A stretch of 41,822 bases of DNA. Source: a virus (taxonomy: Duplodnaviria; Heunggongvirae; Uroviricota; Caudoviricetes). The notes under the pieces were generated by a model, which was not told the DNA's origin, searched no databases, and worked only from the letters and a program-made list of their open reading frames with translations. The DNA is taken from the IMG/VR virus record IMGVR_UViG_2897346870_000006; one strand, 5' to 3'. The first letter of the stretch is position 1. Each line of letters opens with the position of its first letter. A program made the position numbers and the translations under genes. Positions 37,858-40,432 of this stretch are shown here, one piece after another.

Positions 37858-38220
37858 ATGGCTAGCGAACGCAGTACTGATGTGCAGGCATTTATCGGGG
37901 AGCTGGACGGCGGCGTATTTGAAACCAAAATCGGCGCAGTTCTCAGTGAGGTCGCTTCCGGTGTGATGAACACGAAAACCAAAGGGAAGGTCTCACTCAA
38001 TCTGGAAATCGAACCGTTTGATGAGAACCGTGTGAAAATCAAACACAAACTCTCATATGTTCGCCCAACTAACCGCGGGAAAATTTCCGAAGAAGACACC
38101 ACCGAAACGCCGATGTATGTCAATCGCGGTGGTCGCCTGACTATTCTGCAGGAAGACCAGGGACAATTACTGACTCTTGCCGGTGAACCTGACGGAAAAC
38201 CCCGCGCAGCAGGTCGTTAA
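37858..38220 (+). CDS. YfdP-like hypothetical protein (120 aa)
   Basis: GAGGAG ribosome-binding site 8 nt upstream of the ATG at 37858; the ORF-track extension to 37693 covers structured non-coding DNA; first gene of the conserved yfdP-T-like block. Confidence 0.55.
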   Translation: MASERSTDVQAFIGELDGGVFETKIGAVLSEVASGVMNTKTKGKVSLNLEIEPFDENRVKIKHKLSYVRPTNRGKISEEDTTETPMYVNRGGRLTILQEDQGQLLTLAGEPDGKPRAAGR

Positions 38221-38285
38221 TATCGTTCGTAATAAACTGATTATTTATCTCATCACTGAATATCTTTATATAGTGAGGACTTATT

Positions 38286-39110
38286 ATGTCTCAGAACTTA
38301 GACGCAACCGCAATTAATCAAATCCATGCCCTTATTTCTGCTCAGGGTGTTAATGAAATTATCAGTAAGATTGGTGCCGATGCTGTGGCATTGCCTGAGA
38401 ATTTCCGCATTCATGATCTGGAAAAATTTAATTTAAATCGCTTCCGTTTCCGTGGTGCACTTTCCACTGCCAGCATCGATGATTTTACCCGTTATTCTAA
38501 AGATCTTGCAGATGAAGGCACCCGCTGCTTTATCGATGCCGATAATATGCGTGCCGTCAGTGTGCTTAACCTGGGTACTATTGATGAGCCAGGTCACGCA
38601 GATAACACTGCCACTCTCAAACTGAAAAAGACAGCACCGTTCTCTGCTCTGTTGTCTGTTAACGGCGAGCGTAACTCCCAGAAGTCACTGGCAGAATGGA
38701 TCGAAGACTGGGCCGACTACCTTGTGGGCTTTGATGCTAATGGTGACGCTATTCAGGCAACAAAAGCGGCTGCGGCAGTCCGTAAAATCACGATTGAAGC
38801 AAACCAGACCGCTGATTTTGAAGATAATGACTTCAGCGGCAAACGCTCCCTGATGGAGTCTGTCGAAGCGAAGACCAAAGACATTATGCCAGTGGCATTT
38901 GAATTTAAATGCGTTCCGTTTGAAGGTCTGAAAGAACGTCCGTTTAAATTACGCCTCAGCATTATCACTGGCGATCGTCCTGTACTGGTTCTGCGCATTA
39001 TTCAGCTGGAAGCGGTGCAGGAAGAAATGGCTAACGAATTTCGTGATCTGCTTGTTGAGAAATTCAAAGACAGCAAAGTAGAAACCTTTATTGGTACTTT
39101 CACCGCCTGA
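38286..39110 (+). CDS. YfdQ-like protein (DUF2303), 274 aa
   Basis: Length and order match the CPS-53 yfdQ position; family recalled from memory. Confidence 0.6.
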
Positions 39111-39237
39111 TTTCATTACTGCAAATGCCCCTGCGGGGGCATTTATGGAAACGTAATTAACTCAATAATCACCGGATGGTGAGGGCTTCCTTTTACCAGA
39201 ATTCAGCGCGGTGCAGTGCATATACGTGGAGAACAAA

Positions 39238-39774
39238 ATGTCATTTATTAAAACTTTTTCCGGGAAGCATTTTTATTATGACAAGATAAATAAAGACGAC
39301 ATCGATATTAACGATATCGCGGTTTCCCTTTCAAATATCTGTCGCTTTGCCGGTCATCTTTCGCACTTCTACAGCGTCGCCCAACATGCGGTTCTTTGCA
39401 GCCAGCTGGTGCCGCAGGAATTTGCTTTTGAAGCGTTAATGCATGATGCAACAGAAGCGTATTGCCAGGACATTCCCGCACCACTGAAACGCCTTCTTCC
39501 TGACTATAAACGGATGGAAGAAAAAATAGACGCCGTAATCCGTGAGAAATACGGGTTACCCCCAGTTATGAGTACACCCGTGAAATATGCCGATCTCATC
39601 ATGCTGGCAACCGAACGCCGCGATCTCGGGCTTGATGATGGCTCTTTCTGGCCTGTACTGGAAGGCATCCCGGCAACAGAGATGTTCAACGTGATTCCAC
39701 TGGCACCGGGTCATGCCTACGGGATGTTTATGGAACGTTTTAACGATTTATCGGAGTTACGCAAATGCGCATGA
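39238..39774 (+). CDS. HD-domain phosphohydrolase (YfdR-like, 178 aa)
   Basis: Histidine/aspartate-containing segments (HLSHFYSVAQHAV, ALMHDATEAYCQDIP) consistent with an HD domain; start at the ATG after GGAGAA (the ORF track begins 9 codons earlier). Confidence 0.65.
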   Translation: MSFIKTFSGKHFYYDKINKDDIDINDIAVSLSNICRFAGHLSHFYSVAQHAVLCSQLVPQEFAFEALMHDATEAYCQDIPAPLKRLLPDYKRMEEKIDAVIREKYGLPPVMSTPVKYADLIMLATERRDLGLDDGSFWPVLEGIPATEMFNVIPLAPGHAYGMFMERFNDLSELRKCA

Positions 39775-40127
39775 ATGTTTTCGAAATGGAAGGGTTTCTT
39801 CGCGGGAAATGTGTACCGCGAGATCTGAAAGTGAATGAAACAAATGCTGAGTACCTGTTACGTAAATTCGACGCGCTTGAAGCTAAATGTGCGGCACTGG
39901 AAAACAAAATAATACCAGTGTCAGCTGAACTGCCACCAGCAAATGAAAGTGTTCTGTTATTTGATGCTAATGGAGAAGGCTGGCTGATTGGCTGGCGTTC
40001 TCTCTGGTACACCTGGGGACAAAAAGAAACCGGAGAATGGCAGTGGACATTTCAGGTCGGGGACCTTGAAAACGTCAATATCACTCACTGGGCAGTAATG
40101 CCAAAAGCACCGGAGGCTGGAGCATAA
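39765..40127 (+). CDS. YfdS-like hypothetical protein (120 aa)
   Basis: Tryptophan-rich C-terminus; overlaps the previous gene by 10 nt. Confidence 0.55.
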   Translation: MRMNVFEMEGFLRGKCVPRDLKVNETNAEYLLRKFDALEAKCAALENKIIPVSAELPPANESVLLFDANGEGWLIGWRSLWYTWGQKETGEWQWTFQVGDLENVNITHWAVMPKAPEAGA

Positions 40128-40432
40128 TGACCACATTTACCAATAAAGAACTGATTAAAGAAATCAAAGAACGAATCAGCAGCCTAGAGGTTCGAGACGA
40201 TATTGAGCGCCGTGCTTATGAAATCGCACTCGTATCTCTGGAAGTAGAGCCAGATGAACGCGAAGCCTATGAATTATTCATGGAAAAGCGTTTCGGTGAC
40301 TTAGTAGATCGTCGGAGAGTAAAAAACGGCGATAACGAATACATGGCATGGGATATGACTCTCGGTTGGATCGTCTGGCAGCAACGAGCTGGTATCCATT
40401 TTTCAACAATGACACAGCAAGAGGTGAAATAA
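40127..40432 (+). CDS. YfdT-like hypothetical protein (101 aa)
   Basis: Acidic small protein; start overlaps the previous stop (ATGA). Confidence 0.55.
   Translation: MTTFTNKELIKEIKERISSLEVRDDIERRAYEIALVSLEVEPDEREAYELFMEKRFGDLVDRRRVKNGDNEYMAWDMTLGWIVWQQRAGIHFSTMTQQEVK

Follow-up and report, generated by a model that had tools for sequence, protein, structure and literature searches.

What does a lambdoid prophage do with five small genes placed where lambda carries exo, bet, gam, kil, and cIII? The question is raised by the virus record IMGVR_UViG_2897346870_000006, a 41,822-nucleotide (nt) stretch of Caudoviricetes DNA (hereafter, the window), in which yfdP, yfdQ, yfdR, yfdS, and yfdT extend from the ATG of yfdP at 37858 to the final base of the yfdT stop codon at 40432. 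A first-pass annotation had recognized five co-oriented yfdP-Q-R-S-T-like genes in lambda's early-left slot. These points held: the coordinates match exactly, and all five genes lie on the plus strand. Their products are 97.0–99.4% identical to YfdP–YfdT of Escherichia coli K-12, and the block has the left operator (OL) upstream and xis-int downstream on the same strand. The DNA from 37839 to 40485 is 97.8% identical to the CPS-53 region of K-12 MG1655. The block is a known, very common, and already described early-left accessory block of SfV/ST64B/CPS-53-type lambdoid prophages. As to its physiological role, we tentatively favor a hindering of replication initiation on the host chromosome once the phage is induced or infects, a role that we regard as plausible without holding it to be probable. 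What our analysis adds is that the block is composite in its gene linkage.

A composite block of three units

Judged by conservation and translation signals, the five open reading frames (ORFs) are real genes rather than chance ORFs, because homologues are kept in 86 diverse loci and a Shine-Dalgarno-like sequence precedes each gene. The start of yfdS overlaps the end of yfdR by 10 nt, and the yfdS/yfdT and yfdT/xis junctions both read TAATG; because of these stop/start overlaps, together with the Shine-Dalgarno-like sequences, yfdR, yfdS, yfdT, and xis appear to form a translationally coupled chain. All five products are acidic, with isoelectric points (pI) of 4.9–5.9.

Of 5426 complete E. 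coli genomes, 3638 matched a 3.3-kb stretch, and in 1326 of these the match covered at least 80% of the stretch; 139 phage records matched it as well. The phage matches included SfV and SfIV (95%), PhiR49_1, PhiR29, and Kati (98–99.9%), and Stx2c phages (97% over 78% of the query). RefSeq names yfdP, yfdQ, yfdR, and yfdT, and SfV annotates the block as orf32–orf28.

Gene linkage was compared in 80 prophage loci from different bacterial species, obtained by a GTDB genome scan, and in six phage loci, including some from tblastn against phages; the ORFs of all 86 loci were searched with the window proteins. When IMG/VR was scanned with the YfdQ alignment, the only matches were E. coli copies of 100% identity, which were unsuited to the comparison of contexts. 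In 85 of the 85 loci with upstream DNA present, the gene immediately upstream of YfdQ was YfdP, in the same orientation (median gap, 52 nt). YfdR followed YfdQ on the same strand in 60 of the 86 loci and was adjacent to it in 54 of these 60, whereas YfdS and YfdT were found in six and four loci, respectively. Because of these frequencies, the linkage data mark the block as composite, made up of three units that differ in age and in linkage: an obligate YfdP–YfdQ pair, a frequent HD-domain partner, and lineage-specific extras of the exo-xis type (YfdS and YfdT).

Clustering of the neighboring ORFs yielded a recurrent layout, in which rep, cII, and cro lie on one strand and cI, yfdP, yfdQ, yfdR, and later int on the other. 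The order cI, then yfdP-yfdQ-yfdR, then int was found in prophages of approximately 80 species, and also in ST64B, Pseudomonas pAN, Halomonas H4907, and Psychrobacter Psymv2. A Proteus terrae prophage has a tRNA gene (L146:5347–5415) within its early-left region, ~150 nt upstream of the yfdP homologue.

YfdS comprises an N-terminal coiled-coil-like segment and DUF551 (PF04448; residues 50–117), the latter a marginal match of 22.1 bits against a gathering threshold of 22.0. In Ea22 variants, DUF551 is known as a portable domain at the C-terminus (PMC10834534). YfdT matched no Pfam family. Redundancy of YfdS and YfdT through shared ancestry was considered and rejected, as their BLASTP match was not significant (E-value, 0.31).

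Proposed interference with the initiation of host replication

The first-pass annotation had described the products other than the HD-domain protein as uncharacterized. This is outdated, since work on DnaA and oriC has been published for the near-identical K-12 proteins (Noguchi and Katayama, 2016; PMC4776307). In that study, yfdQRST was isolated because it suppressed the over-initiating hda-185 mutant in multicopy, and the minimal set for oriC inhibition in multicopy was yfdQ and yfdR together with either yfdS or yfdT, yfdP being dispensable (PMC4776307). YfdR bound DnaA directly, Phe46 of DnaA domain I being important, and competed with DiaA and DnaB; extracts oversupplied with YfdQRST inhibited oriC replication in vitro (PMC4776307). 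The authors suggested that in the ancestral phage the genes had a role like that played by lambda P (PMC4776307).

These experiments and the early-left placement of the block are the main grounds for the reading that we favor. Also in its favor are the near-identity to the K-12 proteins used in those experiments, the Shine-Dalgarno-like sequences and overlapping stop/start codons, the recurrent layout of cI, yfdP-yfdQ-yfdR, and int, the conserved HD tetrad, and an early-left region in which no recombination or kil/cIII-type genes were found. The block would be read from the promoter pL (operator at approximately 36682–36727) through a structured leader into xis-int, and YfdR would bind DnaA domain I at the Phe46 surface used by DiaA and DnaB. 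YfdR, YfdQ, and either YfdS or YfdT would then lower oriC firing after induction or infection, which would leave replication resources for the phage. By analogy with K-12, we infer that the same inhibition could occur at natural pL expression in an intact phage.

Several points weigh against this reading and limit our confidence in it. The evidence comes from overexpression: inhibition was obtained only with extra gene copies, initiation was unaffected when yfdQRST was deleted, and the authors stated that an overexpression artefact cannot be excluded (PMC4776307). Neither YfdQ nor YfdS nor YfdT bound tightly to DnaA or YfdR (PMC4776307). yfdP was not needed in the K-12 assay, yet it is the tightest partner of yfdQ, so that this assay probably misses the native role of the pair. 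In addition, YfdR is missing from 26 of the 86 YfdQ loci, and YfdS and YfdT from more than 90% of them. In the window itself, no N-like antiterminator was recognized, and a terminator-like hairpin lies between pL and yfdP.

YfdR as an HD-domain phosphohydrolase

YfdR is an HD-domain phosphohydrolase by its sequence, as the first-pass annotation had also concluded. The HD metal ligands H50, H69, D70, and D119 are kept in 56–58 of 58 distinct YfdR homologues (29–99% identity), and R36, E73, and D78 are likewise essentially invariant. The closest solved relative is an HD protein (PDB ID: 2gz4; E-value, 3.7e-14), and the Pfam matches, YfbR-like (24.3 bits against a gathering threshold of 25.9) and HD_3 (17.0 against 22.5), were both sub-threshold. 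Because the ligands are near-invariant, catalysis is probably under selection, which keeps alive the enzymatic idea of the first-pass annotation. This conservation suggests that YfdR keeps an enzymatic role as well, namely hydrolysis of deoxynucleoside monophosphates or a related phosphoester.

It may then be asked whether YfdR is mainly an enzyme, a 5'-deoxynucleotidase or another hydrolase of phosphoesters or signaling nucleotides, which would reshape precursor pools or remove a signal early in infection, its binding to DnaA being incidental. The conservation of all seven residues in 56–58 of the 58 homologues argues for this reading, as do the database labels (5'-deoxynucleotidase for yfdR in RefSeq; deoxyribonucleoside 5' monophosphate phosphatase for phrog_318 in PHROGs), the solved relative 2gz4, and a separate HD "phosphohydrolase" downstream of YfdQ in Pseudomonas phage pAN. 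On the other hand, YfdR scored 19.9 bits against the YfbR equivalog model (NCBIfam NF003009), for which the cut-off is 122, so that it is not a YfbR orthologue; its score on the Pfam YfbR-like model also fell short, and the K-12 study states, at second hand, that its nucleotide affinities lie much below those of YfbR (PMC4776307). Moreover, a mainly enzymatic YfdR accounts for just one of the five genes. We consider this reading unlikely. As for the nucleotide-pool or signaling role proposed in the first-pass annotation, the HD-domain assignment stood, whereas the role itself gained no direct support, given the failed equivalog cut-off and the low affinities stated in that study.

The YfdP–YfdQ pair

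YfdP and YfdQ form an ancient, obligate two-gene pair. YfdQ matched DUF2303 (PF10065) over residues 7–272 of 274 (309.7 bits against a gathering threshold of 26.6; E-value, 2e-92) and phrog_210 (E-value, 2.6e-120). A profile search of 1.84 billion representative proteins with YfdQ gave 1758 clusters at 50% identity, and the best 150 cluster representatives were mostly 260–290 amino acids (aa) long, with a few truncated and none carrying a domain fusion. YfdP, which is separated from YfdQ by 65 nt in the window, had no match in the Pfam scan; all listed YfdP homologues carry a precomputed PF27127 assignment, and for both YfdP and YfdT the sole family matches were PHROGs without an assigned function. 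Profile comparison identified the ORF that precedes YfdQ in Xanthomonas CP2, and likewise in Vibrio 44E38.1, as a YfdP homologue (hhalign probability, 99.2–99.4%). Four more distant phages of Vibrio, Psychrobacter, and Acinetobacter have an ORF of approximately 125–140 aa at or just upstream of YfdQ, one of them annotated as phrog_204.

The most conserved part of YfdP is the C-terminal motif EEDTTETPMYV..GG.LTILQEDQGQL, in a segment predicted with low confidence, which may mean that it folds on a partner. For YfdQ, a sequence search found the PDB entry 9o7m, named "YfdQ Protein," which contains 36 chains of an Ala-rich homologue of 274 residues (E-value, 1.6e-56). This entry was not among the fold-search matches listed, and our literature search found no paper mentioning it. 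The fold searches with YfdP and YfdQ gave no fold match, and neither protein had fold or sequence similarity to an annealing protein, a nuclease, or a single-stranded DNA-binding protein (SSB).

These features are compatible with a two-protein machine, in which a large YfdQ homo-oligomer and a small YfdP adaptor, its conserved C-terminal segment predicted to be disordered by itself, would act on the replication or recombination apparatus of host or phage by a mechanism of an uncharacterized type, and in which the initiation-inhibitor phenotype of K-12 would be only a side view. We regard such a machine as possible but somewhat doubtful. If it exists, it would be among the more widespread unexplained early phage modules (at least 1758 clusters), found in both temperate and seemingly lytic phages of Enterobacterales, Vibrio, Xanthomonas, Pseudomonas, Acinetobacter, and others.

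Another reading takes the pair as an early counter-defence device. As a large oligomeric decoy or sponge, for instance, it would shield incoming or induced phage DNA from a host defence system. It is in line with the early position of the genes, the acidic character (pI 5.0 and 5.9) and orphan folds of YfdP and YfdQ, the 36 chains in one entry of the solved homologue, and the very wide family of uniform length with no fusions among its best 150 matches. In a preprint, yfdQ was needed for plaque and demarcation-line formation by a T1-like phage, and overproduction of YfdQ restored both, although this phenotype is indirect (10.1101/413146). Against counter-defence by the pair, YfdP–YfdT matched none of the PADLOC models, which cover defence rather than anti-defence. 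We hold it to be very unlikely.

Recombination genes and Chi sites

According to the first-pass annotation, the block replaces the recombination and host-takeover genes of lambda. Scans with Pfam, PHROG, and NCBIfam models detected no Exo/RecE, Beta/RecT/Erf/Rad52, Gam/Abc2, or SSB among the ORFs at 28.9–41.8 kb, the leftmost 28.9 kb being unscanned; the early-left region likewise contained no recombination or kil/cIII-type genes in the Pfam and PHROG scans. Only RusA and a DUF968/HNH protein were found in the scanned regions, both in a nin-like region. The absence of lambda recombination genes was thus borne out within 28.9–41.8 kb.

Replacement in position, which holds for this lineage, does not extend to function, because the pair adjoins recombination genes in three phages: a full set of Gam, RecT, Exo, and SSB in ArgO145; ERF and YqaJ (an annealing protein and an exonuclease) in Xanthomonas CP2; and a recombinase, an exonuclease, RNase T, and SSB in Vibrio 44E38.1. 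Most enterobacterial prophages had no recombination genes within 6 kb of the pair. Phage LLS lacks Rec proteins and has an early-left operon with homologues of yfdP, yfdQ, and an HD phosphatase; the authors considered these unlikely to be hidden recombinases, since ArgO145 has them together with a complete Rec module (PMC12315714, 2025). We also rejected the pair as a hidden recombinase, in view of the missing sequence and fold signals and its coexistence with the full Rec module of ArgO145.

A milder version of this idea is that YfdP–YfdQ, possibly with YfdR, is an accessory to recombination, repair, or replication that acts on phage DNA ends or intermediates, a Rec auxiliary (cf. P22 Abc1/Arf) kept when the core Rec genes were lost. 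The location of the pair immediately beside Rec genes in three unrelated phages (ArgO145, CP2, and 44E38.1) is consistent with such a role, and other distant phages have NinB, Rad52, helicase, or exonuclease genes in the vicinity; a 3'-5' exonuclease-like gene was found downstream in 27 of the 86 loci. Against it are the lack of similarity to an annealing protein, a nuclease, or SSB; the coexistence with a four-function Rec module in ArgO145, which argues that the pair is not a substitute (PMC12315714); the better growth of the related Rec-less phage LLS with host RecBCD (PMC12315714); and a modest count of Chi sites in the window, five on one strand and one on the other. Weighing these points, we judge an accessory role to be fairly improbable.

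The six Chi octamers are located at 29640, 29769, 30040, 31177, 33932, and 39933, with approximately 0.5 per strand expected from base composition. Five lie on the minus strand, corresponding to the lambda "top" strand and to the putatively active orientation, and one on the other; four of the five cluster in the early-right/nin region and one is inside yfdS. Chi density in the window is about that of the E. coli chromosome background or lower, and because it is no higher than that of the host chromosome, the count fits a Rec-less class only weakly.

Phage setting of the block

The 41.8-kb window looks like a complete lambdoid prophage in reverse orientation, with its own cI and OL upstream of the block, which lies between the left operator and xis-int (Table 1). 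The left part is filled by large minus-strand ORFs with structural-gene-like composition. For the leftmost 28.9 kb, a late/structural identity is suggested by ORF layout and composition, the family-model scans having covered 28.9–41.8 kb.

Table 1. Positions of the block genes and of other features of the window.
Feature	Position	Strand	Description
Early-right genes		−	YdaS-type cro, CII, HTH_36 replication protein, PerC, LexA-like protein, RusA, KilA-N, DUF968/HNH, Q
OR (right operator)	34456–34501		two copies of a 17-nt palindrome between cro and cI (34460–34476 and 34483–34499)
cI	34479–35240	+	S24 peptidase and helix-turn-helix
OL	36682–36727		copy of the 17-nt palindrome at 36707–36723 (repeat search)
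Structured leader	37499–37722	+	directly upstream of yfdP; resembles the prophage small RNA (sRNA) STnc100
yfdP	37858–38220	+	120 aa; 97.5% protein identity to K-12 YfdP; phrog_204 (E-value, 2.6e-49)
yfdQ	38286–39110	+	274 aa; 99.3% to K-12 YfdQ (272/274 residues); DUF2303
Hairpin	39128–39141	+	GC-rich GCCCCTGCGGGGGC in the 127-nt yfdQ–yfdR spacer; read from the sequence
yfdR	39238–39774	+	178 aa; 99.4% to K-12 YfdR (177/178 residues); phrog_318 (E-value, 5e-110)
yfdS	39765–40127	+	120 aa; 99.2% to K-12 YfdS (119/120 residues); phrog_583 (E-value, 3.9e-82)
yfdT	40127–40432	+	101 aa; 97.0% to K-12 YfdT (98/101 residues); phrog_660 (E-value, 1e-30)
xis	40432–40803	+	HTH_17 excisionase (PF12728; E-value, 1.2e-8); phrog_2907 (E-value, 6.8e-46); overlaps int by 145 nt
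int	40659–41822	+	tyrosine integrase, intD-like (PF00589; E-value, 5.5e-47); the window ends at the int stop codon

The operator is a 17-nt palindrome, TGCTACTT(A/T)AAGTAGCA, and the palindrome common to OR and OL is TGCTACTTAAAATAGCA. The copy in OL places OL/pL ~1.1 kb upstream of yfdP, and pL would fire rightward from OL to drive the block. Since OR and OL share the palindrome, the immunity region spans approximately 34.4–36.7 kb and includes a gene for a 358-aa ParA/MinD-like P-loop ATPase (35411–36514, plus strand), which directly follows cI. This protein matched AAA_31, weakly an NCBIfam KGGVGR-variant model, and, through the P-loop only, the PADLOC candidate system PDC-M28B (weak match; E-value, 5.7e-9). 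A strong terminator (36495–36514) follows the gene, which is likely expressed in the lysogen with cI because it is located upstream of OL.

Between OL/pL and yfdP, a minus-strand ORF (36872–37387; phrog_1244) lies antisense to the presumed pL transcript. Its product, ~171 aa as annotated in CP121087, has a coiled coil and a CxxC...CxxC zinc-ribbon-like C-terminus. The ORF has its own terminator (36833–36814) and is flanked by a 26-nt inverted repeat (36845–36870 and 37399–37424; 85% complementary); it may be a moron, or else a small cassette that was inserted or can invert.

The structured leader matched STnc100 (Rfam RF02076) over the full model length with 40.3 bits against a gathering threshold of 47 (E-value, 3.3e-6), and ends in a long hairpin with a U-run (approximately 37677–37722; folding z-score, −2.2). 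No match at the Rfam gathering threshold was found in 11 related loci, the window's sub-threshold match being the only one. In RefSeq the stretch is entered as a hypothetical gene with a frameshift, whereas in phage Kati it is joined to yfdP in a 226-aa ORF. The leader could be an sRNA, a leader or terminator controlling entry into the block, or a decayed gene. Within the block, the GCCCCTGCGGGGGC hairpin could act as a weak attenuator that partly uncouples the YfdP–YfdQ pair from the R-S-T-xis chain.

In CP121087, the same integrase is annotated as intD, and a tRNA-Arg gene beside fimZ lies a few tens of bases downstream. The replication region (31483–33241, minus strand) encodes an HTH_36 protein of 313 aa, a PerC-like protein, and a protein with a LexA DNA-binding domain; no recognizable DnaB loader of the lambda P or DnaC type and no helicase were found in it. 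How this phage recruits the host helicase may bear on the role of a block that encodes a protein binding DnaA at its DnaB-docking site.

Significance of the block

For the window itself, the first-pass annotation correctly recognized a block that is named, very common, and partly explained in function by published work; it was not a discovery. What value remains lies in its pointing to the role of the ubiquitous YfdP–YfdQ pair, which heads the early-left operon in many prophages, often without phage recombination genes nearby, and of which YfdQ is genetically required for the DnaA-directed inhibition by YfdR. Once resolved, this role would shed light on the handling of host replication and recombination by Rec-less lambdoid phages, and would explain the intact yfd genes in the decayed K-12 prophage. 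The readings set out above are not mutually exclusive.

Comparison with known systems

The closest known system is the cryptic prophage CPS-53 (KplE1) of K-12, which has the same five genes in the same order and spacing (97.8% DNA and 97–99.4% protein identity). However, CPS-53 is a decayed remnant at argW, with intS at the far end and torI as excisionase, and its immunity and leader region upstream of yfdP is deleted, whereas the window has cI/OL and an intD-type integrase. In near-identical E. coli prophages, the latter integrase abuts the tRNA-Arg gene beside fimZ. SfV, SfIV, PhiR49_1, PhiR29, and Kati share 95–99.9% DNA identity with the window over the block and xis-int, and carry the block in the early-left region downstream of cI; the immunity regions and the cI–yfdP DNA of these Shigella, PhiR, and Kati phages differ from those of the window, as in a mosaic. 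In Stx2c phages the match extends over only 78% of the query, and xis-int is of another kind.

The Rec-less LLS functional type, represented by LLS and ST64B (Genome Res 2025; PMC12315714), resembles the window in its early-left yfdP, yfdQ, and HD phosphatase genes, and no module of the Exo/Beta/Gam type was found in either. ST64B differs in that its YfdQ is only 57% identical and yfdS and yfdT are absent, and LLS has 23 Chi sites compared with six in the window.

YfdS and YfdT resemble the proteins of the lambda exo-xis region (Ea22 and relatives) in being small, acidic, and encoded just upstream of xis, and DUF551 occurs on Ea22 variants of Stx phages as on YfdS, although no Ead/Ea22 signature was detected in YfdS or YfdT. 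YfdR shares with the 5'-deoxynucleotidase YfbR of E. coli the HD fold and the H...HD...D metal site, along with weak Pfam matches to YfbR-like and HD_3; the two are nonetheless not orthologous, and the substrate affinities reported for YfdR lie far below those of YfbR.

With regard to replication interference, lambda P (DnaA domain III), Bacillus subtilis SirA (domain I, Phe49), and Dps and DiaA (domain I) target DnaA, as K-12 YfdR does. The likeness is a functional analogy, that of a small initiator-binding protein lowering initiation at oriC, and includes no sequence or fold relationship, YfdR having an HD enzyme fold. YfdR also differs from these DnaA-targeting proteins in that it inhibits only moderately on its own and in vivo requires YfdQ together with YfdS or YfdT.

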